Source: a virus (taxonomy: Duplodnaviria > Caudoviricetes). From it: a DNA stretch of 64,000 nt. The DNA is taken from the IMG/VR virus record IMGVR_UViG_3300008740_000001, positions 128,001 to 192,000 of that record. One strand, 5' to 3'. A program made the translations under genes and the position numbers. Below the pieces are notes generated by a model that was not told the DNA's origin, ran no database searches, and worked only from the letters and a program-made list of their open reading frames with translations. This document shows positions 15,312-63,404 of this stretch, piece by piece. Position 1 is the stretch's first letter, and the number at the start of each line of letters is the position of its first letter.

Positions 15312-16439
15312 ATGCTTAGAATGGCGAAAAGAAAGAAGAGTGGCGCCGGCAAGATGTCTATTGCCGATATGCGTTCAATTATCAACAAAAAGGCTGGAAT
15401 GGAAGTCGCCCACAGCCTAGCCGGTGAGAATCCAACCGAAGTAAAAGATTGGATTCCCACCGGTTCTCGTTGGCTGGATTCAATTATTGCCCGGGGCAAA
15501 CGAGCCGGGATCCCCGTAGGCAAGGTCACGGAGATCGCAGGTCTCGAAGCTTCTGGCAAGTCTTTCTTGGCTGCACAAGTTGCCGCCAACGCGCAGAAGA
15601 TGGGCATCGACGTAATCTATTTTGATTCTGAGTCTGCCATCGACCCAATGTTTTTGACACGGGCAGGGTGTGATATTAATGATCTTCTATATGTTCAAGC
15701 CTCTTCTGTTGAGTTTGTTCTGGAGACTATCGAAGATTTGCTGGCCAATAATGAGAACAGGATGCTTTTCATCTGGGACTCTCTAGCACTGACGCCGGCT
15801 ATATCGGACGTTGAAGGCGACTTTAACCCACAATCTTCTATGGCTATGAAGGCGCGCATTCTCGCCAAGGGCATGAGTAAACTAACAGTTCCGATTGCCA
15901 ACTCGCAGTCGACGTTTTTGGTCCTGAATCAGCTTAAGTCTAATATTACGCGCTCACCATCTGAAGCCCTTGTTACGCCTTATATGACACCGGGCGGCAA
16001 GGCTATGATTTACGCCTATTCGCTTCGGATTTGGCTAACTCGCCGGAAGGCAAAAGCCAGCTTTATTACAGACGACAAGGGGTTCCGCATCGGTTCAGAA
16101 GTAAAGGTAAAGTTGGAGAAATCACGCTTTGGAACACAGGGCCGTCAGTGCAACTTCAAAATTTTGTGGGGCACGGAAGATGTTGGTGTGCAAGACCGGG
16201 AATCATGGTTTGAAGCCATCAAGGGATCAGAACATATCAAGCAGGCCGGCGCATGGTTTACACTAATGTACGCTGACGGCACCGAAGAACGTTTTCAGGC
16301 GTCAAAGTGGGCGAAAAAGCTAGAAAATGAGAAGTTCCTTGCTAGGGTAGAAGAGCTTATGGATATCGAAGTTGTGAGAAAATTCGATGCACGCGAAGGC
16401 ACTGCCGAAGAATTTTACGGGGAAAAAGAAGAAAATTAA
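15312..16439 (+). CDS. recA: RecA/UvsX recombinase
   Basis: Walker A GLEASGKS, YFDSE, IWDS, LNQ, TPGGKA..YAYSLRI. Confidence 0.93.
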   Translation: MLRMAKRKKSGAGKMSIADMRSIINKKAGMEVAHSLAGENPTEVKDWIPTGSRWLDSIIARGKRAGIPVGKVTEIAGLEASGKSFLAAQVAANAQKMGIDVIYFDSESAIDPMFLTRAGCDINDLLYVQASSVEFVLETIEDLLANNENRMLFIWDSLALTPAISDVEGDFNPQSSMAMKARILAKGMSKLTVPIANSQSTFLVLNQLKSNITRSPSEALVTPYMTPGGKAMIYAYSLRIWLTRRKAKASFITDDKGFRIGSEVKVKLEKSRFGTQGRQCNFKILWGTEDVGVQDRESWFEAIKGSEHIKQAGAWFTLMYADGTEERFQASKWAKKLENEKFLARVEELMDIEVVRKFDAREGTAEEFYGEKEEN

Positions 16440-17448: not shown

Positions 17449-17928
17449 GTGAATATCGGAATAGACTTTCATGATACAATTTCGTATGCACCCGAGTTTT
17501 TTAAAAAACTGATCAGAGATTGGCGCGGAAATGTTTATATTGTAACTGGTACCCCGCCTTCAAAGTCGAACGAACTAATCCGAGATTTAGAAAAATATGG
17601 TTTCACTCCAGATGATTTCAAAGGCATTCTTATGGGCTTTGAATACGACAAGAATAAAATGAACTTGTCACACTTCAGGAAGATGGCTAAACACAAACTA
17701 AAACTCTTGCAAGAAAACGATATTCGGGTTTATTTCGACGATAATCCTTTTTATGTAGACTATGTTAGAGACCACGGCATAGTCGCTATGCAGCCAATTT
17801 TGAATAAAGAGTACCTTGCACGCTTCGAAGAAGCCGACCCCTTTTTTACTTGTAACCTTCAAAAGATGCAATTCGATTATCTAGAGGATCTGGAAAATGA
17901 TACCATGGTCCGATCAAAACACGAATGA
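17449..17928 (+). CDS. HAD-superfamily phosphatase/nucleotidase-like protein
   Basis: Motif I IGIDFHDT, motif II VTG, motif IV YFDDNP. Confidence 0.7.
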   Translation: MNIGIDFHDTISYAPEFFKKLIRDWRGNVYIVTGTPPSKSNELIRDLEKYGFTPDDFKGILMGFEYDKNKMNLSHFRKMAKHKLKLLQENDIRVYFDDNPFYVDYVRDHGIVAMQPILNKEYLARFEEADPFFTCNLQKMQFDYLEDLENDTMVRSKHE

Positions 17929-39552: not shown

Positions 39553-41130
39553 TTGTCAACGTTTAAATATGATTCAAATACTTCTCTTCACCAGAAGATC
39601 TTAAGAGGAGTTAATACTCTGGCCGACAATGTGGCCACAACTCTTGGACCCAAGGGACGCAATGTAATCTTGAAAGAAAAAGACAAGGCGCCATTCATCA
39701 CCAAAGATGGAGTAACAGTGGCCAGATTCGTCCATTTAGAAGACGCTTTTGAAGATGCGGCTGCACAAGTGATCAAGCAAGCCGCAATTGAAACAAACAC
39801 TCATGCTGGCGATGGCACCACCACCGCTACCGTTCTATCGCGTGATATGCTCATGGAAGCGCAGAAGTATCTCATGGCAGGGTGCAGTCCTGTTGAACTC
39901 AAGCGCGGCATGGACAAGGCTTCTAGGGCGGCTATTGAGCATCTTAGGGAGGCAGCAACTCCTGTCAAGACGATCAATGATGTAGAACAGATTGCAACAA
40001 TCTCCGCAAACAATGACAAGTTCATAGGTAAGCTTATTGCCACCGCCGTTGATAAGGTGGGCAACGATGGCTCGATTACGATTGAGGAGTCTCGAACGAT
40101 GGAAACTCATGTTGATATCATGGAGGGCTTTCGGTTTGATTCAGGTTATCGCGCCAACGCCTTTGTTACTGATGAGCGCCGAGCCACAATGAACTATAAC
40201 GATCCTTTGATCTTGGTGACAGACTATAAGATTGAAATGGTAGATGATATCTTACCAACACTTGAATTGGTTGCCAGAGAATCACGCCCGCTTATTATTG
40301 TTGCTGATGATATCGAAGGTCAAGCTCTCGCCGCACTCATCATGAATACGATGCGCGGGACCATGAAGGTTTCGGCAATCAAGGCGCCGAGATACGGCCA
40401 AGAGCGCCGAGATATACTGGGAGATCTGGCTCTGTCTGTGGGCGCCACAATGATTAGTCGCGCTTCAGGACTGAAACTCCGTGACGTTAAATTAACTCAC
40501 TTGGGCGCCGCCAAGACTGCTGAAAGTAGCAAGACCCACACCACCATTGTTGGCGGGCATGCCGATTACGCTGGAATTGAAACAAAGATCCAGTCCTTAA
40601 AGGCCGAGATGGAAGCAACCGAATCCCTTCCGGTATGCAAGACCATACAGGAGCGAATTACAAGACTCTCAAGCGGCGTCGGCGTTATCTATGTAGGTGC
40701 TCCCACACAGGTTGAGATGATCGAGAAGAAGCACAGAATTGAAGATGCGCTGGAAGCTGTCAAATCAGCACAGGTCGATGGCATCGTCACCGGAGGCGGC
40801 ACTGCTCTCCTTCGCGTTGCCAACGAGATCGCAGGCCAAATTGAGGTAGACAATGACGATCAGCGCCTAGGCGTTGACATTGTGCTGAAGGCGATGACTG
40901 CTCCTATTAGGCAAATGGCTCTTAATGCAGGGGTATCTCCAGATTTGATCGTAGAAAAGGTAACGTCTGCCTCGTATACACACGGCTACGACTTCAGAAG
41001 TTTGAAGCAGGTTGATATGATGCAGAGTGGGATTATTGATCCCGTGAAAGTGACCACCACTGCGCTGCAAAATGCAGTTTCGGCTACGGGCACGCTCATA
41101 ACAACAAATTATGCCATTATTCAACGTTGA
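39553..41130 (+). CDS. groEL: Chaperonin GroEL/Cpn60
   Basis: TLGPKGRNV, ITKDGVTVA, AGDGTTTATV, GGGTALL, GIIDPVKV; no GGM tail; TTG start after GGAGG. Confidence 0.95.
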   Translation: MSTFKYDSNTSLHQKILRGVNTLADNVATTLGPKGRNVILKEKDKAPFITKDGVTVARFVHLEDAFEDAAAQVIKQAAIETNTHAGDGTTTATVLSRDMLMEAQKYLMAGCSPVELKRGMDKASRAAIEHLREAATPVKTINDVEQIATISANNDKFIGKLIATAVDKVGNDGSITIEESRTMETHVDIMEGFRFDSGYRANAFVTDERRATMNYNDPLILVTDYKIEMVDDILPTLELVARESRPLIIVADDIEGQALAALIMNTMRGTMKVSAIKAPRYGQERRDILGDLALSVGATMISRASGLKLRDVKLTHLGAAKTAESSKTHTTIVGGHADYAGIETKIQSLKAEMEATESLPVCKTIQERITRLSSGVGVIYVGAPTQVEMIEKKHRIEDALEAVKSAQVDGIVTGGGTALLRVANEIAGQIEVDNDDQRLGVDIVLKAMTAPIRQMALNAGVSPDLIVEKVTSASYTHGYDFRSLKQVDMMQSGIIDPVKVTTTALQNAVSATGTLITTNYAIIQR

Positions 41131-52446: not shown

Positions 52447-53406
52447 ATGGAAGACTGGAATGATTTTAAGCGCATGATACGAGAGGTGGCGGAACCTACC
52501 CCCTTCAAGAGCGCAGCACAAAAGAGATATAAGAAGCTAAGAAAGAAGAACGATATTTACTCGTCACCGGCTGGACACAAGAATCTGAGCAGTGGAAGTC
52601 CGTTTAGCGGAAAAACCCAACGAGCCGGAACTGACAGGCTGCGCTTCGAAGAAGAAGTTGATCCAAGCAGTATCGACTTGTCTAGCTTTGAAATTCAGGA
52701 TGATTTGGAACGAAACTTGTGGTCTGCGAAAGATGAACTTAAACCACTGATGCGCGAGTATATGCTGAAGATCGCACTAGACTTTATCGAAAGTTTGGAT
52801 ATCCCAGTCAAGGTTACTGATATAAGGCTGACTGGTTCTATCGCAAATTTTAACTGGTCAAAGTATTCTGATGTTGATCTTCACATTATTGTAGACTTTT
52901 CAGATTATGGCGACGAGGAAGAACTTGTGCGAGGCTATTTCGATGGCAAGCGCATTGTCTGGAACAACAATCATGATATTAAATTAGCTGGCTATGATGT
53001 CGAACTTTACGTTGAAGGCGACGACGATGTGCATATTTCAACCGGCATGTATTCGGTTATTCACAACAAGTGGTTAACGAAGCCAACAAAAGAAGAGAAG
53101 GCTATAGAGTATGACTTGATCCGACAGAAGGCTGCTGGCTTAATGGATATGATCGAAGCTGCACAAGAAACCTTGCAGCGCAAAGATTACAAAGCCGCAC
53201 ATTTGTTTTCTGAAAAACTAAAAGAGAAGATTCGCAATATGAGAAAGTGCGGCTTGGAAAAGGCTGGCGCCTACTCCGTTGAGAACTTGTCTTTCAAGGT
53301 ACTAAGAAGAAACGGATACCTAGGCATGCTATCGGATGTTAAGAATAAGGCGTATGATGGACTGCACACGCACGATCCCCAAGGGGGCATAGTGATTAAG
53401 GTGTGA
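52447..53406 (+). CDS. Pol-beta-superfamily nucleotidyltransferase
   Basis: LTGSIANFNWSKYSDVDLH (GS...DxD) and a downstream acidic VELYVE. Confidence 0.75.
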   Translation: MEDWNDFKRMIREVAEPTPFKSAAQKRYKKLRKKNDIYSSPAGHKNLSSGSPFSGKTQRAGTDRLRFEEEVDPSSIDLSSFEIQDDLERNLWSAKDELKPLMREYMLKIALDFIESLDIPVKVTDIRLTGSIANFNWSKYSDVDLHIIVDFSDYGDEEELVRGYFDGKRIVWNNNHDIKLAGYDVELYVEGDDDVHISTGMYSVIHNKWLTKPTKEEKAIEYDLIRQKAAGLMDMIEAAQETLQRKDYKAAHLFSEKLKEKIRNMRKCGLEKAGAYSVENLSFKVLRRNGYLGMLSDVKNKAYDGLHTHDPQGGIVIKV

Positions 53407-53678
53407 GGTATAGCTATAAAATTGGCGACTTAGTAGAGATTCGGCACCCTTACGGTAGTGAGGAGTGCAGCTATACGATAGGGCTAATTTTAGCTGTCAA
53501 TAGAATACCTATTGAGTCGCCTCTTAATTCCGAGCGTACAAAATATAAAATTTATTGGTTGACAAGTGCCGGAAAATATGTTAAAAATTGGATAGACGCT
53601 GAAAAGATTTCACTGATTGTTGCCGTGGAGGGCAACGAAGCAAGATACGCACAATATAGAGCAAAAGATGAGCGATGA
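53403..53678 (+). CDS. Small SH3-like protein
   Basis: YKIGDLVEI...IGLI...YKIYW. Confidence 0.5.
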   Translation: MRYSYKIGDLVEIRHPYGSEECSYTIGLILAVNRIPIESPLNSERTKYKIYWLTSAGKYVKNWIDAEKISLIVAVEGNEARYAQYRAKDER

Positions 53679-54006
53679 ATTTACAGTAGATGATAGACTC
53701 CTGACAATACAATTCTTGGGCGTACTACACACATGGCTGCAAGAGACGAAAGCAGAAAAAGAAAGAGAATTGGAACTATTGCAGTTGCAAGAGGGAATAG
53801 TAAAGATCATGTTCGCAAGAATTTCAAGGCCGGAGGATTTCCACACCGAAGAAGTCATTGAGGCCGGCGAGAAAGTATTCTCAGAGAACTGGGAAGAAAT
53901 GCTAGAGCAAGAAATAAAGAAGCTGAATGAATCAGAGCCTCTCCCCGAAACCGAGAGGGACAACATTATTGATTTTTCAGCATGGAAAAAAAAGGATGAG
54001 GACTGA
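53668..54006 (+). CDS. Acidic hypothetical protein
   Basis: ORF ending NIIDFSAWKKK. Confidence 0.5.
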   Translation: MSDEFTVDDRLLTIQFLGVLHTWLQETKAEKERELELLQLQEGIVKIMFARISRPEDFHTEEVIEAGEKVFSENWEEMLEQEIKKLNESEPLPETERDNIIDFSAWKKKDED

Positions 54007-54239
54007 TGACAATTAGAATAGGCGACTTGGTAGAGCACTGTGAATATCCGGGCTACCGAGGTATAGTGAGAGAGGTTCTCGCAACACGCGGGAATGGCAA
54101 GGCTCGTACCATAAAGGTTAGTTGGTTCCCTCCCCTGTCTGATGCATCTCCTAAGCAACGCTGGCAAACAATGCACGTTGAAGGCACAACAAGCGTGTCG
54201 GTGTTGGATGTAAGGCAGATTTCAGCCTTGGGCACTTAA
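54006..54239 (+). CDS. Small SH3-like protein
   Basis: IRIGDLVEH...GIV...VSW. Confidence 0.55.
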   Translation: MTIRIGDLVEHCEYPGYRGIVREVLATRGNGKARTIKVSWFPPLSDASPKQRWQTMHVEGTTSVSVLDVRQISALGT

Positions 54240-54523
54240 TGATGGCTGGCATCGTCGGCGCCCTAGTACAACTTAAGAACTGGCAATCGTCAAAAGACGG
54301 GAAGTCTCAAAGTGGGATAATCCTCTCAAAGCCTTTGCCTGCATCGCGGTTGTATCATCATGACTTTCTGGATGGTTATCGTCCAGATTGGGATCGATTT
54401 GGGTTCATGGAGCCGCACCACCCGGCCAACACTATGGATAACATGGTGCTTGTTTATTGGCCAAGCAATTCAACTGAGCGTTGGCACTTGATGAAAGATT
54501 TAGAATTTTTAAGTATGCCGTGA
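54239..54523 (+). CDS. Small SH3-like protein
   Basis: VGALVQL...GII...VYWP...DLEFL. Confidence 0.5.
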   Translation: MMAGIVGALVQLKNWQSSKDGKSQSGIILSKPLPASRLYHHDFLDGYRPDWDRFGFMEPHHPANTMDNMVLVYWPSNSTERWHLMKDLEFLSMP

Positions 54524-54533
54524 TAGTTACTAT

Positions 54534-54830
54534 GTGGGTGACTGTGAGACTATCAAGCCAAAGAAGGGCGATTTAGTAAGGTGGATTTATGATTATGCTT
54601 TGTATGCAGCTGACGACAAAGGCAACGCTTGGCCTCACGATCCACAATATGAATACGGCGTGATCATGGAAGTTTCACACTCAGACCCACATGCCATAAT
54701 AGTTTTTAGTACAACGACTAAGATGTGGCATGTTGCTCATATGGTTGACGACGACATCGAAATCATCAGCGAGTCCAGAAACAAGGTGGTGATTCCCACC
54801 GCCGAGGAGATCAAGAAGTATGAAAAGTAA
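54534..54830 (+). CDS. Small SH3-like protein
   Basis: KKGDLVRW...GVIM...IEIISES. Confidence 0.55.
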   Translation: MGDCETIKPKKGDLVRWIYDYALYAADDKGNAWPHDPQYEYGVIMEVSHSDPHAIIVFSTTTKMWHVAHMVDDDIEIISESRNKVVIPTAEEIKKYEK

Positions 54831-54906
54831 ACTTTTCGACGAGATCAGGGGCGAGAATGAGTTAAAAACTTTGCGCCAAAATTTTCCTCTTTGGCAGACA
54901 GGTAGG

Positions 54907-54935
54907 TTGACATGAACGCACAGGCGGGTTATAAT
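54907..54935 (+). promoter_or_regulatory. Sigma70-type promoter
   Basis: TTGACA-N17-TATAAT, perfect consensus. Confidence 0.8.
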
Positions 54936-54941
54936 AATGGT

Positions 54942-55130
54942 ATGAATTGGGATAGAATCATAGAAGTGGGTGATTTGGTGAAGGTTGTGCCAAGCAGTTA
55001 TACGCTTAGGGATGAAATACTTACAGGCATCGTGATAAAAAAGATGAAAACCTGCGGGTTTTTTATCGTTTATCATAATGGTATTTATCACCAAAACGTC
55101 CACCTTGAAGAAATGGAGAAGTATCCTTAA
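54942..55130 (+). CDS. Small SH3-like protein
   Basis: IEVGDLVKV...GIVI. Confidence 0.5.
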   Translation: MNWDRIIEVGDLVKVVPSSYTLRDEILTGIVIKKMKTCGFFIVYHNGIYHQNVHLEEMEKYP

Positions 55131-55315
55131 TGTGGGAAGAAGTGTTTTACAAAGTAAAGTATCTAGACAAGAGCACAAACGCTTCTATGCAGGCACTCAT
55201 AAGTGCACCACCATCAAAAACTATTGAGAGAGTACGCGAAATATTATCAGAAGTATATCCTCGATGGGAAATCGAGAGCATTACGGTGACTCTATATACG
55301 CCGATAGACAAGTAA
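55130..55315 (+). CDS. Hypothetical protein
   Basis: Coupled ORF (TAATG) with GGAG upstream. Confidence 0.45.
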   Translation: MWEEVFYKVKYLDKSTNASMQALISAPPSKTIERVREILSEVYPRWEIESITVTLYTPIDK

Positions 55316-55342
55316 AATCGTTCCCGCGCCTCTACTTAGTGC

Positions 55343-55660
55343 GTGGGCGATTCAAACATAAAAAAGGGCGTGCTTGTGCGCCCTGTGGTATTTTTTAGTC
55401 AATGGCTGGGAGTAGTGTTGACCGACCCTGTGCAGTATGTGCCAACCGATAATGAACTGGAAATGGCCGGTTACGCGCCAACTCAAGAGTTTTATTGGGA
55501 AGGGGTCGAAGTTGTCAACGTATATTGGTTTACTGAGGGGATGGCCTCCGAAGAATTTATAGACTTTCTGGAGGTAGTGTCGCCACCTGTTGACCACCTC
55601 GATGACCCCGATTTTGCTGAAAAAATGTTCAATTTTTACTGGACAGACGACGATGATTAG
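55343..55660 (+). CDS. Small SH3-like protein
   Basis: IKKGVLVRP...GVVL...LEVVS. Confidence 0.5.
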   Translation: MGDSNIKKGVLVRPVVFFSQWLGVVLTDPVQYVPTDNELEMAGYAPTQEFYWEGVEVVNVYWFTEGMASEEFIDFLEVVSPPVDHLDDPDFAEKMFNFYWTDDDD

Positions 55661-55693
55661 GTTATAATATACTATGTAATCTAGGAGAGCTTT

Positions 55694-56182
55694 GTGAAAA
55701 TTGTTTTTTTGCATGGACTGGAATCAAGTCCCAACTCGGCAAAGGTAAAATTTCTGCGCGAACAAGGTCACGAGGTGCTGGCACCCCGTCTTGATCGAAA
55801 CGATTGGGAACAGTCTGTTATGGCGGCTCGTGATGCTATCACTGCTTTCCAACCCGATGTGGTCGTTGGCTCGTCTAGGGGCGGTGCTGTTGCTATGGTC
55901 GCAAGAGTCTCACCCATTCCAACAATCCTAATCGCACCTGCATGGAAGAAATACGCGCCTTGGGCCACCATCAGCGGGAGCACAGTGATTCTTCATTCTT
56001 CACAAGACTGGATTGTGCCCTTTGCAGACTCGGAAGAACTCGCCCGTACTTTCGGTGCTAAACTTTATGACGTTGGCGAGGACCATCGCATGAACGACCC
56101 AGAGGCACTTAGTGCCTTGGCTGTGGGCCTTGATTGGCAGGGACATGGCTGGTTTAGTAAAAATCTTCAAGATAACACTTGA
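55694..56182 (+). CDS. Alpha/beta hydrolase (YqiA/UPF0227-like esterase)
   Basis: FLHGLES, GSSRGG nucleophile elbow, HSSQD, DH. Confidence 0.88.
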   Translation: MKIVFLHGLESSPNSAKVKFLREQGHEVLAPRLDRNDWEQSVMAARDAITAFQPDVVVGSSRGGAVAMVARVSPIPTILIAPAWKKYAPWATISGSTVILHSSQDWIVPFADSEELARTFGAKLYDVGEDHRMNDPEALSALAVGLDWQGHGWFSKNLQDNT

Positions 56183-56207
56183 CATTTGAATCTATCTGAT
56201 ATATATT
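56179..56207 (+). promoter_or_regulatory. Sigma70-type promoter
   Basis: TTGACA-N17-TATATT. Confidence 0.78.
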
Positions 56208-56215
56208 ATAGGTGA

Positions 56216-56482
56216 GTGACAAAAGATATGTCTGACCAACTGATAAATCACGCTAGCGGATCGATGCCGCAGCTTACCCTTTTTGAGAGTGCCCAACTAG
56301 GACTAATGGCCTTCGTCGGAGGGCTAGCGATGGATGCCCAACTCGATGCCATTATCCCGACTATCCGCGAATCAGAGCGTTTGAAGTTGGATGGCACTGT
56401 AACCCAACATGAAGTAGCTTTGCTAGACGCCTTTATTGCACAGGCGCTGCGCGATCTGCCTCCCGTTGCAGAGGATGTATAA
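56216..56482 (+). CDS. Hypothetical protein
   Basis: First ORF after the promoter. Confidence 0.45.
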   Translation: MTKDMSDQLINHASGSMPQLTLFESAQLGLMAFVGGLAMDAQLDAIIPTIRESERLKLDGTVTQHEVALLDAFIAQALRDLPPVAEDV

Positions 56483-56757
56483 TGAAAACCGTTATTGTCG
56501 TTGACACTGACGATCCAAAGGGGATGGAGAGTACCCGGCGTATTGTGGACAACCTGTTGACCACCTATCATCACCGCAGTATTGAAGCCGGTGATCCATT
56601 CTCTGGCAAGATCCAGTTCATCAAGCACTTGCGAGCATATGTAAAGTTCTGTGAGGAAAACTGGCCCGATGACTGGCAAAATCAGATCGGCAACCTTAAG
56701 ACCTCGAAGGGATACGCGGATACCCTCAAACTTTTCCAACGTGCAGGTAACCTGTGA
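56482..56757 (+). CDS. Hypothetical protein
   Basis: GAGG SD, coupled ORF. Confidence 0.5.
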   Translation: MKTVIVVDTDDPKGMESTRRIVDNLLTTYHHRSIEAGDPFSGKIQFIKHLRAYVKFCEENWPDDWQNQIGNLKTSKGYADTLKLFQRAGNL

Positions 56758-56975
56758 GTCAGAGCCAGCACTACTATAATCCGCAAGTGGGCGATTTGGT
56801 GCGAATCATCGAGGGTACACACGATCCGAGCATGCCCGAAGATCGTATTGGTCTGATCGTGGAGATTCTGCAACAGGAACCGGGAGACGCCCCGCGCAGT
56901 CACGATACTTTTATGGTCAAGTTTGGCACCCGTACCTTGAAGTTCCACAAGATGTGGCTTGAAAAAGTCTCTTGA
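56754..56975 (+). CDS. Small SH3-like protein
   Basis: PQVGDLVRI...IGLIV...LEKVS. Confidence 0.55.
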   Translation: MSQSQHYYNPQVGDLVRIIEGTHDPSMPEDRIGLIVEILQQEPGDAPRSHDTFMVKFGTRTLKFHKMWLEKVS

Positions 56976-57026
56976 CATCTTTTTGACAAAAAACCCCTTG
57001 CACCTCGCGCTAGCCTGTGCTATATT
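56972..57026 (+). promoter_or_regulatory. Triple -35 promoter
   Basis: TTGACA(56972), TTGACA(56983), TTGCAC(56998)-N17-TATATT. Confidence 0.8.
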
Positions 57027-57051
57027 ATATACATGATTTACGGAGAGTGTC

Positions 57052-57384
57052 ATGTCTGATTTTTATGTGAGCCGAATCGACGTTCGGGCTGGTGATCCTA
57101 CTGCTGGCGAGCCCGCTGTTGTTGCAGAGGAGGTCGTCCTGACCCTCAAAGCGCCATATCATGCTGCGGAGCGTAGTTACCAAAAGTTCCGCGCTTTGGG
57201 CATTGAGAACATTGGGCTGTACGAGTATTCTTTGAACAAAAAGTCTTACGCGGCTAGCCTCAAAGCGCAGAAGCGCAGGAAGTTCAAGAAGATCACGCTG
57301 GCTGACGTGGCAAAGGATTTGCAAGAGTTTATGGAGGAAGGCAAGCCCGATGCCGATCAAGAAACACACACTGAAAAGGGGTGA
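57052..57384 (+). CDS. Hypothetical protein
   Basis: GGAG SD, first ORF after the promoter. Confidence 0.55.
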   Translation: MSDFYVSRIDVRAGDPTAGEPAVVAEEVVLTLKAPYHAAERSYQKFRALGIENIGLYEYSLNKKSYAASLKAQKRRKFKKITLADVAKDLQEFMEEGKPDADQETHTEKG

Positions 57385-57574
57385 TCTTGTTCGGCTTCGC
57401 ACAGGCTGGCCCGAACATTGGCGTTATGGAATCGTGTTGCGAGTGAACAACCACAACCCTGAATGGCCACACTGTGATATACACTTTTTTCAAACACCAA
57501 CATCAGAATCAAAACAATCTAACATCAATCAATATCTAACTGGACTGGAGAAGATAAATGAGCAACACATTTGA
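57350..57574 (+). CDS. Small SH3-like protein
   Basis: LKRGDLVRL...GIV...LEKINE. Confidence 0.55.
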   Translation: MPIKKHTLKRGDLVRLRTGWPEHWRYGIVLRVNNHNPEWPHCDIHFFQTPTSESKQSNINQYLTGLEKINEQHI

Positions 57575-58400: not shown

Positions 58401-58485
58401 GGCGCGGTGGTGGAATCGGTATACACAGCAGACTTAAAATCTGCCGCTTTTTAGCTTGCGGGTTCGAGTCCCGCCCGCGCTACCA
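58401..58485 (+). tRNA. tRNA-Leu(TAA)
   Basis: Acceptor GGCGCGG/CCGCGCT, anticodon arm GCAGA-CTTAAAA-TCTGC, long variable arm, T arm GCGGG-TTCGAGT-CCCGC, encoded CCA. Confidence 0.95.
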
Positions 58486-58843: not shown

Positions 58844-58894
58844 CATTCTCTTGACAACTTGGCTATTGACGCCACACCTCTCGCATGTTATATT
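58840..58894 (+). promoter_or_regulatory. Triple -35 promoter
   Basis: TTGACA(58840), TTGACA(58851), TTGACG(58866)-N17-TATATT. Confidence 0.82.
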
Positions 58895-58900
58895 ATATAC

Positions 58901-59071
58901 ATGAAACGAAGAAAGACAAAGGCACCGAAGTCGCGCAACTGGCTTGCGGTACATGCACGAATGGACTTGGCCACTGGTGGCGAGCGCAAAGGCGCTGGAC
59001 CGCACGGAGGCCGGAAGCAGCGTTATAGCCGCAAGGTAAAGCACAAGGGGCGTACTAATGAAAGTCGGTGA
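58901..59071 (+). CDS. Small basic protein, ArfA-like C-terminus
   Basis: RN.LA...KGAG...YSRKVKHKG; ends NESR* in the cassette junction. Confidence 0.5.
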   Translation: MKRRKTKAPKSRNWLAVHARMDLATGGERKGAGPHGGRKQRYSRKVKHKGRTNESR

Positions 59072-59219
59072 TCTGATCATGTCGAAAGACGGATACCATA
59101 CTGCGCTAGTGGTGAGTATTGTCGGAGCCGCTGCTTTCAACCGCATCAAAGTGCTGGTTGTTGGCAGCGACACGCCCGAAATGTGCGATCCGAGAATGTG
59201 GGAGGTTATAAGTGGATAG
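59058..59219 (+). CDS. SH3-like cassette protein (not in the ORF track)
   Basis: MKVGDLIMSKDG...WEVISG*, 53 aa, translated by hand. Confidence 0.65.
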   Translation: MKVGDLIMSKDGYHTALVVSIVGAAAFNRIKVLVVGSDTPEMCDPRMWEVISG

Positions 59220-59340
59220 CCTGCCTCAAACTCCCTTGGTGGCTTTTCTTTACATCTTTGCCTTCATAGGTCTTGGCATATTGATTAGTCAGGCCAGTCA
59301 TATTTTATACGACATTTGGGAAGATTGGAGGAAGAAGTGA
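59212..59340 (+). CDS. Small single-TM protein (42 aa)
   Basis: GGAGG SD, GTG start; LVAFLYIFAFIGLGILI. Confidence 0.5.
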   Translation: MDSLPQTPLVAFLYIFAFIGLGILISQASHILYDIWEDWRKK

Positions 59341-59420
59341 GAAGTATATTGGTAACTATTGGAATCGTGGTAACGATTTTCGTGCTTTCGTTTGCTATTA
59401 CATTGGCGCTAACAGCATGA
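59337..59420 (+). CDS. Small hydrophobic peptide (27 aa)
   Basis: GGAGG SD, GTGA and ATGA couplings at both ends; MRSILVTIGIVVTIFVLSFAITLALTA. Confidence 0.45.
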   Translation: MRSILVTIGIVVTIFVLSFAITLALTA

Positions 59421-59617
59421 AAGTCGGTGATTTGGTGCGCCCAACAGACAGAAACCTTCTATCGGGAAGCCGACGAGTTGGCATTGTTGTGCATGTGGAT
59501 ACCGGATGGGATAACAAACAAGTAAGAGTAAAGTGGGACATCCCCTCGTGGATGGACGATGAGGGTTTGGCGTCTGAATCTCCCGAGAACCTAGAGGTGA
59601 TCAGTGAAAGTCGGTGA
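59417..59617 (+). CDS. SH3-like cassette protein
   Basis: MKVGDLV...LEVISESR*. Confidence 0.7.
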   Translation: MKVGDLVRPTDRNLLSGSRRVGIVVHVDTGWDNKQVRVKWDIPSWMDDEGLASESPENLEVISESR

Positions 59618-59765
59618 CTTGGTTCGACATTGGTTGACAGAACAACTCGGTATTATCCTCGATGTTGGGTTTCACAATATCAGGGTTCAGTGGCTAGATG
59701 AGATCGTCTTTGGTGTTGAAGAACTTGATCCTCGCAACGTGGAGGTGGTCAGTGAAGCCCGGTGA
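59604..59765 (+). CDS. SH3-like cassette protein (not in the ORF track)
   Basis: MKVGDLVRHW...VEVVSEAR*, 53 aa, translated by hand. Confidence 0.65.
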   Translation: MKVGDLVRHWLTEQLGIILDVGFHNIRVQWLDEIVFGVEELDPRNVEVVSEAR

Positions 59766-59940
59766 TCTGGTAAGGCATTCCGAGCCTGTGGACCGGGCTG
59801 AGTTTGATGCTGTTGGTGTTGTTGTTGAGATTCAAGAAGATTGGATGAAGAACTGGTCAAAAGTAAAAGTAATGTGGACCGGCCTTCAGGTTCCAGTATG
59901 GGAACCAATCCGCTGCGTCAAACTCTTTACATCCTCTTGA
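59752..59940 (+). CDS. SH3-like cassette protein
   Basis: MKPGDLVRH...VGVVV...VKVMW; GGAGG SD. Confidence 0.65.
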   Translation: MKPGDLVRHSEPVDRAEFDAVGVVVEIQEDWMKNWSKVKVMWTGLQVPVWEPIRCVKLFTSS

Positions 59941-59980
59941 CAAGATTCTTGTTGACAGCCACAAACCCTTGTGCTATAAT
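59926..59980 (+). promoter_or_regulatory. Triple -35 promoter
   Basis: TTTACA(59926), TTGACA(59937), TTGACA(59952)-N17-TATAAT. Confidence 0.8.
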
Positions 59981-60005
59981 ACATAGGTAAATCGGAGAAC
60001 ACACC

Positions 60006-60344
60006 ATGAATATCGAACTAACCGAAGATGAGATTATCATGATCCTTGACTGCATTGGAGCACGGATTGAGGATCTTCAAGAAACCTTGGCATGGACACC
60101 TGATTGCGGCGAATCTGCCGATCAGCTATCCGCATTGGCCGATCTGGATATGGACTTGCGCGAGCAGTCCAACCGGCGGGACGATGGCTGGAATGACGAA
60201 GTGACTGAAACCTTTACGACGAACCTAGTCCAGTCTGCCATCGACGACTGGCAATCAAAAGTAACCTCTAGCTCGAAGGCCGCCAGCAGGCGGCAGGCCC
60301 GGTGGCTAGGACTGAACCGAACAACCAACAAAGGGAATGAATAG
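60006..60344 (+). CDS. Hypothetical helical protein
   Basis: GGAG SD, first ORF after the promoter. Confidence 0.55.
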   Translation: MNIELTEDEIIMILDCIGARIEDLQETLAWTPDCGESADQLSALADLDMDLREQSNRRDDGWNDEVTETFTTNLVQSAIDDWQSKVTSSSKAASRRQARWLGLNRTTNKGNE

Positions 60345-60540
60345 CATGGCGATTTGCATCGAATGTGAAGAAGAATACAACGACAAGCGGAAAGCCTTGG
60401 GCTACCGCACTTGCTTGGACTGTGGAGGTCGAGCAGCAAACAGGACCATCCGGGCCCGAAACGCTGCCAGCTTGCGGGCTATGACCCCGAACCACTACGA
60501 AGGCAGCGTGGAGGATATGTTTGACAAGCGCCCCTCTTGA
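60337..60540 (+). CDS. C4 zinc-finger protein (TraR/DksA-like finger)
   Basis: CIEC-x15-CLDC with internal R...G. Confidence 0.5.
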   Translation: MNSMAICIECEEEYNDKRKALGYRTCLDCGGRAANRTIRARNAASLRAMTPNHYEGSVEDMFDKRPS

Positions 60541-60544
60541 AGCC

Positions 60545-60599
60545 TTGACATTTACTTGACAAGAAATGCCTTGCCATCTAGTGCAGGGCATGATATATT
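60545..60599 (+). promoter_or_regulatory. Triple -35 promoter
   Basis: TTGACA(60545), TTGACA(60556), TTGCCA(60571)-N17-TATATT. Confidence 0.82.
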
Positions 60600-60605
60600 A
60601 TATAC

Positions 60606-60890
60606 ATGAGCCAAAGGAGAAATCTCATGATGCCTGACTACGATCCAGATTTTCAAGTCTACACCGATATGGAGCAGTGTAACCGCTTTGAAGCCTCGTA
60701 CTTTGATCACGAGGCCGAGTTGGTTGTTGCAGCATCTACCCTTCTGGAGTCGAAAGGACCGGGCGGCTATGATGCTTCGCATACCGAGTTTTTGTCACAG
60801 TTTGGTTCAGGCACACTGGTGCTTCGTCGCACTAGCGAACAGTGCCCCGGCTGGTGGCGTGTTCACAACTTTATCCCGACGAGGTGGTAA
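60606..60890 (+). CDS. Hypothetical protein
   Basis: First ORF after the promoter; alternative start after AAGGAG. Confidence 0.5.
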   Translation: MSQRRNLMMPDYDPDFQVYTDMEQCNRFEASYFDHEAELVVAASTLLESKGPGGYDASHTEFLSQFGSGTLVLRRTSEQCPGWWRVHNFIPTRW

Positions 60891-61196
60891 ATGGAACTTT
60901 GGGTCATGACAGGTACATATAACGGCGAACATTTCGCCACAACCCACTTGACCGAAGTCGGAGCATTGAAATCAATGATCTTCGACGTACTCCAGTTTCT
61001 TGGCATCGAGGAAGAAGAACATGCGAGAGCAGATCCCGACGCAGCAGAAAAGCCAGACTTGGAGTGGAGCCCGCAAGTGATTGGAGAAATGGAAGTTGAT
61101 GAACTGCGGTCCCTAATGCGTAAGTACCACCAATACACTTGGGACAACTGCGAAGGGTACTCCATAGAAATATGCCGGTGCCAACTGGAAGCATGA
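60891..61196 (+). CDS. Hypothetical protein
   Basis: GAGGTG SD, coupled ORF. Confidence 0.55.
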   Translation: MELWVMTGTYNGEHFATTHLTEVGALKSMIFDVLQFLGIEEEEHARADPDAAEKPDLEWSPQVIGEMEVDELRSLMRKYHQYTWDNCEGYSIEICRCQLEA

Positions 61197-61423
61197 TTAG
61201 TAAACTTAGCCGACAACCACGGCGCAGCTTTGCGCCCCGACGCAGCAAGGCCCCGAGAATGGGGGATGTGGTGATCCATAAAGTTGATAAGTCTCTCGGT
61301 GTGGGTCTGGTTATGGAATGCTGGGGGATCGATTGCTTGGTTCAATGGGCCAAAACAATCGTGGAGCCAGATCCATGCTGGCATCGCCGCGTCAAGCTAG
61401 AGGTGATTAGTGAAAGTCGGTGA
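61193..61423 (+). CDS. SH3-like cassette protein
   Basis: RMGDVV...GLV...VQW...LEVISESR*. Confidence 0.6.
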   Translation: MISKLSRQPRRSFAPRRSKAPRMGDVVIHKVDKSLGVGLVMECWGIDCLVQWAKTIVEPDPCWHRRVKLEVISESR

Positions 61424-61607
61424 TTTGGTGATTATGCCGGGGTCGGGTATTGTTCCTGAAAGGCCAGCAATCGGCATTATAGTAACGCCCCGTGTCAACA
61501 GGGGAAAGACCCGCAGGACTGCCCGAATCGGTGTCATGTGGTCGGATGGCGATGGCGTGGATATGGAACCTTGTCACTGGCTGGAGGTGATTAGTGAAAG
61601 TCGGTGA
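61410..61607 (+). CDS. SH3-like cassette protein
   Basis: MKVGDLV...LEVISESR*. Confidence 0.7.
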   Translation: MKVGDLVIMPGSGIVPERPAIGIIVTPRVNRGKTRRTARIGVMWSDGDGVDMEPCHWLEVISESR

Positions 61608-61878
61608 TTTAGTGGTTCAAGGCAATCGAGTCTTGATGATAAAGGGCAGTAAGCGCAAGTCGAAAATGATTGGTGTTGTTGTAGCGATCCGTGACATGCC
61701 GCCCGCCCGACCGGAAGAAACTGAAGTGTTGAGACAAATGATGGCTATGCTAGGGCGTCAGGTTGATGTGCTTTGGCCTAATGGCCATGTGTCTAAAAAC
61801 TTTGCCGAGAACGGTTTAGAGGTTGTAACGTCCAAAGAAGAATGGCTGGAGGCTGTTAGTGACGTACAAGAAGGGTGA
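61594..61878 (+). CDS. SH3-like cassette protein
   Basis: MKVGDLV...GVVV...VLW...LEVV...EAVSD. Confidence 0.7.
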   Translation: MKVGDLVVQGNRVLMIKGSKRKSKMIGVVVAIRDMPPARPEETEVLRQMMAMLGRQVDVLWPNGHVSKNFAENGLEVVTSKEEWLEAVSDVQEG

Positions 61879-62065
61879 TTTGGTCGAAGTTAGGCGTATT
61901 CTGGGTGTGGGCGATGGGTTTCATCCACGGCGACGGGGCATAGTTCTGCAAACGACAGCGGCGATTTCTGACAACGATCCCAAAGGTGTTCTGGTGATGA
62001 TCAACGACGGAGTTGAGGCTAGCGAGTGGTATGCTTGGCAACTTGAAATGATTAGTGAAAAGTAA
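61859..62065 (+). CDS. SH3-like cassette protein
   Basis: MTYKKGDLV...GIV...LEMISEK*. Confidence 0.65.
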   Translation: MTYKKGDLVEVRRILGVGDGFHPRRRGIVLQTTAAISDNDPKGVLVMINDGVEASEWYAWQLEMISEK

Positions 62066-62119
62066 ACTTTGACATCTGAGTTTCTCCGCCGAGACTACTT
62101 ACAAGCGACGAGGTGAAAA

Positions 62120-62296
62120 ATGAAAGAAGTTGATGTAAAGCTGAACACCGGGCAGATTGAGATGATCGAAGAAGCCTTGCAGCTATTGCGAGTAACTTAT
62201 GACGGCAGCACTATCATTGGCAAGATCCGCCTGCGCGATGTGAAGTCGCTAGCAAGGAAGATGCACGAGGCGAAAGAGGACGCAGAAACGCCTTGA
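62120..62296 (+). CDS. Hypothetical protein (58 aa, not in the ORF track)
   Basis: GAGGTG SD; MKEVDVKLNTGQIEMIEEAL...; stop codon inside a TTGACA box. Confidence 0.55.
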   Translation: MKEVDVKLNTGQIEMIEEALQLLRVTYDGSTIIGKIRLRDVKSLARKMHEAKEDAETP

Positions 62297-62347
62297 CACA
62301 CTCTTGACAACTGAACTCTTGACAGGCTAGCCCGCAGATGGTATATT
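62293..62347 (+). promoter_or_regulatory. Triple -35 promoter
   Basis: TTGACA(62293), TTGACA(62304), TTGACA(62319)-N17-TATATT. Confidence 0.85.
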
Positions 62348-62353
62348 ATAGGC

Positions 62354-62584
62354 ATGATGATTGGTGATCTAGTGCTGGTTCATTGGGGCAACAGCGACTA
62401 TTCCGGCGCAGAGGGTGTCGATTGGGGTCGTTCCCCCGGCATCGTCATTGGCGAGGTCCGGTACTGGAATGAGGACGCCCGAGCCAGCAACTCGCCCGTG
62501 TGTGGCGATGTTGATCTATGGTTTCGTAACGAAAGAATCTCATACAATATCGGACGATGCGAGGTGATCAATGAAAGTGCCTAG
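62354..62584 (+). CDS. SH3-like cassette protein
   Basis: MMIGDLV...GIVI...EVINESA*. Confidence 0.7.
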   Translation: MMIGDLVLVHWGNSDYSGAEGVDWGRSPGIVIGEVRYWNEDARASNSPVCGDVDLWFRNERISYNIGRCEVINESA

Positions 62585-62753
62585 CCTAAAGATTGGTGAT
62601 CTGGTTGTTCGCACCTATGGAGAAGGACAAAGGCCGATGGCGCTCGTCGTTGGCCGGTTCAATGCGTTGATCGTAAAAGTAAAGTGGCTGGGCTCTGACA
62701 TGATCGAAGATGTGAACAGTCAATATCTGGAGGTAATCAATGAAAGTCGGTGA
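62571..62753 (+). CDS. SH3-like cassette protein
   Basis: MKVPSLKIGDLV...LEVINESR*. Confidence 0.7.
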   Translation: MKVPSLKIGDLVVRTYGEGQRPMALVVGRFNALIVKVKWLGSDMIEDVNSQYLEVINESR

Positions 62754-62937
62754 CTTGATAACTCTCACATATGAGGGTGAACCACTTGATGATCGGGCTG
62801 TGGGCATTGTTACCTGTATTGATCCCGAAGAACTTGGCGACGACGAAGAAGTTGAAGTATGGTGGATCGGTCATTTCACCGGCCACAGCAATCACTCAAC
62901 ATGGAATCTGGAGGTTATTAGTGATGCAAGTAGGTGA
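62740..62937 (+). CDS. SH3-like cassette protein
   Basis: MKVGDLI...LEVISDASR*. Confidence 0.7.
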   Translation: MKVGDLITLTYEGEPLDDRAVGIVTCIDPEELGDDEEVEVWWIGHFTGHSNHSTWNLEVISDASR

Positions 62938-63154
62938 CATAGTTCAGGGCGAAGCATGCAGCAACTTGGATGCTGTTGGCATCATTATATCGAAATCAAC
63001 ATCACCACCGTGGGCTGGAGGTCCAGACCGAATCGTGGTGTGCATAACAAAGAGCGCCGCGAACAATCATACAGACAAGTTTCAAGCAGGTAGTCACGCA
63101 TCAACAAAGGTCAGTTATAATCTTTGGAAGGTCATTAGTCATGCAAGTCGGTGA
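62924..63154 (+). CDS. SH3-like cassette protein
   Basis: MQVGDIV...KVISHASR*; probable true start is the ATG at 62924 after GGAGG. Confidence 0.68.
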   Translation: MQVGDIVQGEACSNLDAVGIIISKSTSPPWAGGPDRIVVCITKSAANNHTDKFQAGSHASTKVSYNLWKVISHASR

Positions 63155-63353
63155 TTTGGTGAGAAACTACATGACGGAACAACTGGGTACTGTTGTTGCT
63201 GAGTCGTGTCGCGTTACTGGTGGTAACGATACTGACGAGCCTCATAGTTTTCAAGTGCTGTGGACTACTACGGGCGATTTTGGAGGCGAAGTTGGGTCTA
63301 AAGAATGGACAGGCCCGACGTTTGTGGAGATATTGGATGATGATCGGTCTTGA
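63141..63353 (+). CDS. SH3-like cassette protein
   Basis: MQVGDLV...VEILDDDRS*. Confidence 0.68.
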   Translation: MQVGDLVRNYMTEQLGTVVAESCRVTGGNDTDEPHSFQVLWTTTGDFGGEVGSKEWTGPTFVEILDDDRS

Positions 63354-63404
63354 CATTTACTTGACAAAGAACCTCTTGACAGCGACCGAGGCATATGGTA
63401 TATT
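63350..63404 (+). promoter_or_regulatory. Triple -35 promoter
   Basis: TTGACA(63350), TTGACA(63361), TTGACA(63376)-N17-TATATT. Confidence 0.85.

Follow-up and report, generated by a model that had tools for sequence, protein, structure and literature searches.

How does a phage come to hold a series of small and diverged genes that are chained to one another by nearly the same short piece of DNA, and what does that piece do? The question is raised by an array of small genes, all on the same strand, at positions 58901–63353 of the window, which is the whole 64,000-nucleotide (nt) stretch of DNA that was analysed. The window comprises bases 128001–192000 of its parent record (IMG/VR record IMGVR_UViG_3300008740_000001), a virus genome of 203,859 bp that has terminal repeats and is rated complete. 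Coordinates are those of the window unless another record is named. Consecutive genes of the array overlap in a conserved coding sequence, the junction. The reading that we consider probable is that the loss, gain and replacement of whole cassettes take place preferentially at this junction, within an array of genes encoding predicted SH3-like barrels.

Anatomy of the junction and of the proteins that it joins

Within the window the junction has the consensus GAGGTnATyA-(A/G)TGAAAGTCGGTGA, and at most joins the two genes overlap by 14 nt. Its core, (A/G)TGAAAGTCGGTGA, is found in seven copies in the window when no more than one mismatch is allowed, and each copy marks the start of a gene on the + strand. 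The mean for shuffled controls is 0.05, and none of 100 reaches seven. With up to two mismatches there are 11 copies within 187–193 kb of the genome, and none on the minus strand. The copies in this genome have exact repeats of 16–27 nt in common; those at 61400–61423 and 61584–61607, for example, share an exact repeat of 27 nt.

The canonical form of 24 nt is located at 59594–59617 (+ strand). In one frame it is read as Glu-Val-Ile-Ser-Glu-Ser-Arg-stop, while the next frame has a Shine–Dalgarno (SD) sequence and then GTG-Lys-Val-Gly-Asp. As a general rule the stop codon of the upstream gene is a TGA lying across the GGT-GAy codons (Gly-Asp) of the next gene. Since this TGA is supplied by the downstream gene, the tail of the upstream protein (ESR and its variants) is a by-product of the downstream cassette. 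Where a VKPGD partner takes the place of VKVGD, the upstream protein ends in ...SEAG instead of ...SESR, and genes that have no partner have other ends. Once both peptides are fixed the genetic code leaves the 14-nt core almost wholly fixed. A GTG start calls for AGT (Ser) and an ATG start for AAT (Asn); Lys-Val accounts for GAA and AGT, the Arg is generated by GTC or GTA, and GGT generates the TGA. The segment CTG-GAG-GTG-ATC is read both as L-E-V-I and as GGAGGTGATC, which we take to be the complement of the 3′ tail of 16S rRNA. The GGAGGT is located 6 nt before the start codon, and the Glu in question is encoded by GAG in at least 90% of cases, compared with a background of 46%.

Overlaps of exactly 14 nt are found at the gene starts 59604, 59752, 61410, 61594, 62571, 62740, 62924 and 63141. 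The original prediction counted nine. Eight are therefore solid, and the ninth, at 59058, is doubtful because the gene overlaps a basic, non-family open reading frame (ORF) of 70 amino acids (aa; 58859–59071) that is not called on the near-identical contig L137. The gene at 59058 retains the canonical start sequence even though only this doubtful ORF overlaps it from upstream. The overlap of 20 nt claimed for 61859 is exact in the ORF list; it results from two added N-terminal codons, and here too the upstream gene is terminated by the TGA that spans Gly-Asp. At 62571 the N-terminal motif is doubled (MKVPS-LKIGDLV), so that the upstream gene terminates at TAG instead. Judged by its sequence, this doubled N-terminus resembles a scar left by imprecise joining within a junction.

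The junction is conserved throughout a clade of phages. The exact 24-nt pattern is present in at least 119 IMG/VR contigs, and between genomes the DNA matches of 90% identity or above are confined to the junctions, the surrounding DNA being far less conserved. When 941 family genes from ~115 loci were classified by their overlaps, 619 were of the 14-nt form, 155 of the 4-nt form and 26 of the 1-nt form, with 116 separated by a gap.

The proteins joined in this way form a single family. An iterated hidden Markov model (HMM) search of all ORFs finds 13 members in 58901–63353, in keeping with the earlier estimate of at least 11 small genes sharing their ends, and 26 in the genome, with further ones beyond the end of the window. 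Gly-Asp are the sole invariant residues; we presume a likeness between the family start and the KOW motif G-D-x-V. The family falls into 1,224 clusters at 50% identity, almost all with proteins 50–80 aa long, and paralogues within this genome are 19–46% identical. The middles of the cassettes had been taken as unrelated, and this does not stand. Alignments reveal a weak pattern of shared motifs, G-(I/V)-(I/V)-V and V-x-V-x-W, and with a profile built from the middles alone of other genomes, seven of the 17 local middles score above all 340 shuffled controls.

The protein of the 59417 cassette was modelled by AlphaFold2 as a five-strand barrel with a predicted local distance difference test (pLDDT) score of 85. 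The strands comprise residues 6–9, 22–28, 35–40, 51–54 and 59–63; the first follows MKVGD, and the last is LEVIS. Foldseek matches the model to the SH3-like barrels PsaE, NdhS, PetP, KOW and Tudor with template-modelling (TM) scores of 0.6–0.73, the E-values of 0.05–0.2 being weak. As judged from the models, the family fold thus holds as an SH3-like five-strand small barrel, as was proposed from the sequence. The protein of the 62354 cassette, the middle of which is undetectable by profile, is modelled as all-beta (pLDDT 75) and has two homologues among 5.8 billion proteins. The family resembles the SH3-like small barrels (PsaE, NdhS, PetP, KOW, Tudor and Mib/HERC2) in its predicted five strands, but has no significant Pfam match in sequence: for ten members no Pfam family was found at E up to 1, KOW and other SH3-clan profiles included. 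Searches of PHROGs gave weak matches alone, and those of BFVD and the ESM Atlas unnamed viral proteins alone. The top match of the profile search is a repeat protein of 1,319 aa, Mib/HERC2-like by eye; it was rejected as kin and taken as a resemblance at the level of the fold. The same likeness was noted by eye in the sequence of a profile-matched protein with 13 repeats. Two metagenomic proteins of 132 and 143 aa (P0171 and P0200) each consist of two family domains joined in frame, and fusions of cassettes therefore arise naturally.

Cassette turnover and codon choice at the junction

The content of the cassette arrays is not fixed among relatives. Phages with ~65–70% identity in their core proteins have 17–26 family genes each, almost none of which are orthologous; only the gene at 59417 has an orthologue (73% identical, in contigs L141–L145). 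Near-identical strains mostly preserve the order of their cassettes, and some differ by single cassettes. The arrays of L061 and G043, which are at an intermediate distance from each other, are collinear and differ by cassette indels, with block identity ranging from 69% to 95%.

At the finest scale the differences are whole cassettes bordered by junction repeats. The ENA scaffold L137 is 99.97% identical to the window (four single-nucleotide polymorphisms in 12 kb), and has an extra 58-aa cassette exactly at the junction at 59604. The indel is of 163 nt, with perfect repeats of 25 nt on either side. The interior of the extra cassette is not found in the rest of this genome, and contig L139 has the form of the window. 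Contigs L015 and L017 (99.5–100% identical) differ by an indel of 176 nt that is exactly one 59-aa cassette; a 20-nt repeat lies on either side of it, and every ORF remains intact. L154 differs from L156 and L161 (~96–99% identical) by an indel of one 73-aa cassette, and it is here that the tail of the upstream gene turns from SESR into SEAG with its new partner. An insertion of another kind distinguishes L142 and L143 from L141, where the gene of a 117-aa HNH endonuclease (phrog_2255, E 4e-25; L142:299–652) is located in the junction with 16-nt repeats on either side. The inserted gene takes over the SD sequence and the ATG of the junction and begins with MKVGD, and the identity of the contigs passes from 92% to 99.9% across the junction. 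The nearest relative of this endonuclease, 47% identical and 153 aa long, has an additional Cys-rich part at its N-terminus and is encoded on an unrelated AT-rich viral contig, L152. Neither this genome nor any of the other 150 loci has a homologue.

Breakpoints were defined as the internal ends of matches of 400 nt or more with an identity of 93% or above (n = 25). In both partners 18 of the 25 fall within −16 to +30 nt of the start of a junction, compared with 14% of random positions within 1.5 kb, a null that overstates the specific enrichment because most gene edges in the arrays are junctions. They are therefore not placed at random, and cluster at the 5′ edge, GGAGGT, and just past GAT-TTG-GT. 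Breakpoints off the junction exist too, such as those of a 216-nt indel in L058/L091. A tandem duplication of 252 nt in L159 (L159:3346–4085) has its borders off the junction and adds an 80-aa gene relative to contigs that are ~97–99% identical. Two apparent insertions of 155 nt in L154 and L161 were discarded as scaffolding artefacts, consisting of N-gaps with duplicated ends.

The codons of the junction are also preferred where no second frame is superimposed on them. Codon choice was compared between 297 family genes that lack the 14-nt overlap and a background of gene interiors. In these genes Lys2 is AAA in 83% (background 51%), Val3 is GTC in 63% (21%) and Gly4 is GGT in 75% (30%, and 34% at another conserved Gly), while Leu6 is TTG or TTA in 66% (36%) and Val7 is GTA in 48% (18%). 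Synonymous conservation thus extends beyond dual coding, the junction codons being dominant in genes without an overlap.

The original prediction, which proposed that cassettes are shuffled at the junction, had named three observations that would speak against it: fixed content and order among relatives, breakpoints scattered at random, and synonymous positions no more conserved than dual coding requires. All three were checked, none speaks against the proposal, and the idea of shuffling is thus supported.

Proposed explanation and its rivals

The proposed explanation is as follows. The array lies in a hyper-variable and presumably early-expressed region of an uncultured marine jumbo phage, in which members of a large family of ~60-aa SH3-like barrels are arranged as short operons under sigma-70-type promoters. 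Within an operon the genes are chained by one conserved sequence of ~35–45 nt that has four roles. It encodes the strand with which the upstream barrel ends (L-E-V-I-S), provides an extended SD sequence (GGAGGTGAT) for the next gene, contributes the GTG or ATG start of that gene together with its invariant K-V-G-D codons, and terminates the upstream gene with the TGA across GGT-GAy. Because the block is repeated 15–25 times per genome and is common to the whole clade, it could act as a portable patch of homology. Recombination between two copies would delete, insert or replace whole cassettes, and as each exchange leaves one intact junction every product would be ready for expression. The agent may be a RecA-like recombinase of the phage, or else replication slippage or template switching. 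The junction itself would be maintained by stacked constraints, that is by the termini of the barrel, by the SD sequence and start, and by the stop.

Some further properties can be suggested. The overlapped genes may be translationally coupled, and the cassettes may be diversified small binders for host takeover or counter-defence. The junction appears, from the comparison of sequences, to be used by recombination, and selection for shuffling itself is a candidate role. A bolder version of the proposal is possible, and is offered tentatively since we doubt it more than we believe it. The junction would then be a selected 'universal adaptor', in which a 5′ block of ~40 nt containing an out-of-frame TGA lets co-infecting phages of the clade swap cassettes by short homology from a community-wide pool of >1,000 protein types, always yielding an expressed and properly terminated gene. 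Such a system would correspond in phages to the cassettes of integrons, though it would work without an integrase. It would maintain a diversified library of small SH3-like binders for takeover or counter-defence, and would provide a landing pad for selfish genes such as those of HNH endonucleases.

The main rival is that the array is passive. A unit bearing the overlap would have been multiplied by tandem duplication, and the junction kept by the protein termini, the SD sequence and dual coding; recombination would be unguided, and the breakpoints would simply mark the whole-gene recombinants that survived. This is consistent with a 14-nt core that is almost wholly set by the two peptide sequences. 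A number of other observations weigh likewise against guided exchange at the junction, besides the lenient null for breakpoint positions given above. L-x-V-I-S is retained as protein even in genes that have no downstream partner, and one gene writes ISESR with different codons. Mosaicism at gene boundaries is general in phages, and illegitimate recombination at random, once filtered by selection, should also leave mosaic boundaries at the edges of genes. No recent tandem duplicates were seen in this genome. The binomial p-values of the codon bias ignore shared ancestry, the effects being large, and the bias could alternatively derive from recent descent from overlapped genes or from constraint on the initiation region. 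All of the comparisons are drawn from metagenome assemblies, in which repeats of 25–35 nt could cause chimeric joins. Logan contigs of the source runs break at junctions, with the 20–30-nt sides of their joints coming from other phages in the sample, and show no variants that could be relied on; the extra cassette of L137 is known from a single scaffold.

Other evidence is difficult to reconcile with a passive array. The junction codons survive in the 297 genes that lack the overlap. The indels are bordered by perfect junction repeats of 16–25 nt and leave one clean junction, with no sloppy joints or gene fragments at these events, and the paralogues are old (19–46% identity), yet near-identical genomes differ in content. 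These observations weaken the case for a passive origin of the array, which we consider unlikely.

It is much less probable still that the cassettes are moved by a dedicated enzyme, an integrase for instance or a homing endonuclease, for which the junction serves as recognition or insertion site, as attC does in integrons. In favour of this reading, the HNH gene lies exactly in a junction, with duplicated junction sequence on either side. This is, however, one event only, the endonuclease lacking homologues both here and at the 150 other loci, and junction homing by HNH endonucleases was rejected as a general mechanism. Moreover the breakpoints do not coincide at a single position but are spread across ~45 nt. 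The complete genome has no match to PF00589, the tyrosine integrase profile, whereas control genomes all match, and it has neither RecT nor ERF; a mechanism that is integron-like or driven by a single-strand annealing protein was rejected on these grounds. The genome does encode a RecA-family recombinase (15312–16439, + strand; 124 bits to PF00154) in its replication module, and on its sequence this protein is a candidate enzyme for recombination between junction copies.

That the small genes are not real, the repeat being a non-coding or regulatory DNA element and the ORFs its by-products, is scarcely credible, since nothing other than ORF size and the lack of database annotation speaks for it, whereas all copies are on the coding strand in fixed frame relations, conservation is at the level of protein with variable interior codons, the barrel models are confident, there are ~1,200 diverged protein clusters, and orthologues are found at 55–96% identity.

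The array in its genome and among known systems

The genes of the array are all on the + strand. The first, at 59058–59219 (53 aa, MKVGDLI...WEVISG), opens a short operon; a hydrophobic ORF of 42 aa (59212–59340) overlaps its end by 8 nt. It is followed by family cassettes at 59417–59617 (66 aa, the modelled barrel), 59604–59765 (53 aa, identified from the ORF list and HMM) and 59752–59940 (62 aa, VKPGDLV...), the last of the operon, which overlaps the preceding gene by 14 nt and has a non-canonical tail. The next short operon is opened by a sigma-70-type consensus promoter at 59952–59980 (TTGACA-17-TATAAT, with TG). Here the array is broken up by four small genes outside the family (60006–61196), encoding proteins of 112, 67, 94 and 101 aa that have no Pfam or PHROG match. 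The 67-aa protein (60337–60540) is Cys-rich and zinc-finger-like, and its gene is the best conserved of the small genes in the region, with 74–79% identity in G002 and G003.

The array resumes with a cassette at 61259–61423 (MGDVV...LEVISESR, in an ORF that is open from 61139), and continues with those at 61410–61607 (65 aa; ORF list and HMM), 61594–61878 (94 aa, with an insertion within the barrel) and 61859–62065 (68 aa, VTYKKGDLV, the gene with the longer overlap). A further series begins at 62354–62584 (76 aa, the all-beta model) and proceeds through 62571–62753 (60 aa, with the doubled motif), 62740–62937 (65 aa; ORF list and HMM) and 62924–63154 (76 aa, MQVGDIV). In the last of these the junction variant has GTA, hence AGG for Arg in the upstream frame. 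The series terminates with the last gene of its operon at 63141–63353 (70 aa). Near-consensus promoters of the sigma-70 type are found at the operon starts (58866, 59952, 60571, 62319 and 63376), and those at 59952–59980, 62319–62347 and 63376–63404 have an extended −10. The matching region of a relative (L153:3250–3320) has three tandem TTGACA boxes.

Looser members of the family had been placed at 17925, 31662, 41911 and upstream of the array. The HMM bears this out for 17925 and for 53403–57574 (+ strand), where members with starts at 53403, 54006, 54534, 56754 and 57350 are located among other genes, with a weak partial match at 54239. It is negative for 31662 and 41911, which show nothing but a GD(I/L)V-like start and were rejected. 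The member at 54534–54830 has an internal E-I-I-S-E-S-R in codons unlike those of the junction (AGC GAG TCC AGA), followed by 17 further residues; going by the codons, this may be a relic of an old junction or the product of protein-level selection on the tail.

Every large ORF of the genome is on the + strand. PHROG matches include a tape-measure protein, DnaB helicase, ribonucleotide reductase, a DnaE/PolIII-alpha-type polymerase, GroEL and tail fibres, the phage-encoded GroEL-type chaperonin being located at 39553–41130 (phrog_5725, E 4e-138). The source runs containing the DNA are marine or seawater metagenomes. The best cultured matches of the DnaE/PolIII-alpha-like replicative polymerase among 50,697 phage records are those of Bacillus and Mycobacterium phages, at 29% identity, and the same records gave no match to the array by blastn or to one cassette by tblastn, so that the phage is without a cultured relative. 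The DnaE-like polymerase is present in 31 of 40 tested records that bear the junction, including all ten of those with at least 90% completeness; its identity is 60–73% in genomes of 185–193 kb and 41–43% in larger ones of 235–293 kb, with 41% in the one complete record of 293 kb. Because the ten complete records share this polymerase the carriers of the junction are assigned to one clade, and on this sequence evidence the junction is characteristic of a single clade of marine jumbo phages that are uncultured. A tRNA-Leu (anticodon TAA) is encoded at 58401–58485 in the gap directly 5′ of the array. The contig depth of the source runs is highest at this tRNA, which indicates a sequence common to other organisms in the samples. 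Within the literature that could be searched no paper on this protein family or junction was found, the queries with peptide motifs matching words by accident only.

If the junction is indeed a site of whole-cassette exchange, a phage lineage can hold a large and fast-turning accessory repertoire without the usual cost of illegitimate recombination, because each exchange would rebuild, from one short sequence read in two frames, the structural termini of the proteins as well as the ribosome site, start and stop. A large unannotated protein family, probably expressed early, is defined (~1,200 clusters at 50% identity, no Pfam match). The 24-nt junction provides a simple DNA signature by which such arrays, and the phage clade, can be spotted in metagenomes, and an adaptor that is both self-terminating and self-initiating could serve as a design principle in the building of gene libraries.

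Several known systems can be compared with the junction. In the model of Susskind and Botstein, conserved boundary or linker sequences are said to guide the homologous exchange of modules in lambdoid phages. As there, short sequences at gene borders are proposed to steer the exchange of functionally equivalent modules; the lambdoid linkers, however, join non-paralogous modules and occur once per border, whereas the junction is reused 15–25 times per genome in one family. Integron cassettes are mobilized by the system of attC and IntI. They resemble the present cassettes in being small, without promoters and on the same strand, with a repeat at each border, variable content and a large pool. 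They differ in that here the genome has no tyrosine integrase match, the repeat is coding and the exchange appears to be based on homology. Ordinary co-directional stop/start overlaps (ATGA, TAATG), in which translation is coupled, similarly have the SD sequence inside the upstream gene and the start before the upstream stop, and the 155 family genes with the 4-nt form are of this kind. The junction is unlike these in that the overlap is 14 nt at a fixed sequence, clade-wide and serially reused, with a stop derived from the Gly-Asp codons of the next gene.

The closest likeness is to the promoter-early stem-loop (PeSL), which in T4-like phages mediates the shuffling of modules within hyperplastic regions (Arbiol et al. 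2010, PMC2839356; Comeau et al. 2014, PMC4122927). In both systems a short conserved motif is repeated between small, non-essential and mostly orphan early genes, and close relatives differ by the insertion, deletion or replacement of a flanked gene, leaving one chimeric motif. A motif of this type carries expression signals, and the recombinants are thereby viable. The PeSL is an intergenic element of ~100 bp with a sigma-70 promoter and a terminator stem-loop (PMC2839356; PMC4122927). Excised mini-circles with a single motif are also a feature of PeSL shuffling. The junction, in contrast, is ~35–45 nt long and is contained within coding sequence in two frames; it provides the SD sequence, start and stop rather than promoter and terminator, the promoter-like sites being at the operon starts. 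It is also bound to one protein family, of which it encodes the first and last structural elements, and the phage is not T4-like, having a DnaE-type polymerase. Motif-guided shuffling of modules, known from intergenic PeSLs, would thus also take place at a coding junction, and in uncultured marine jumbo phages that form an unrelated clade. By this analogy PeSL-mediated shuffling is the closest known parallel, and the junction would appear to be a version of it that operates in coding sequence and at the level of translation in an unrelated lineage.

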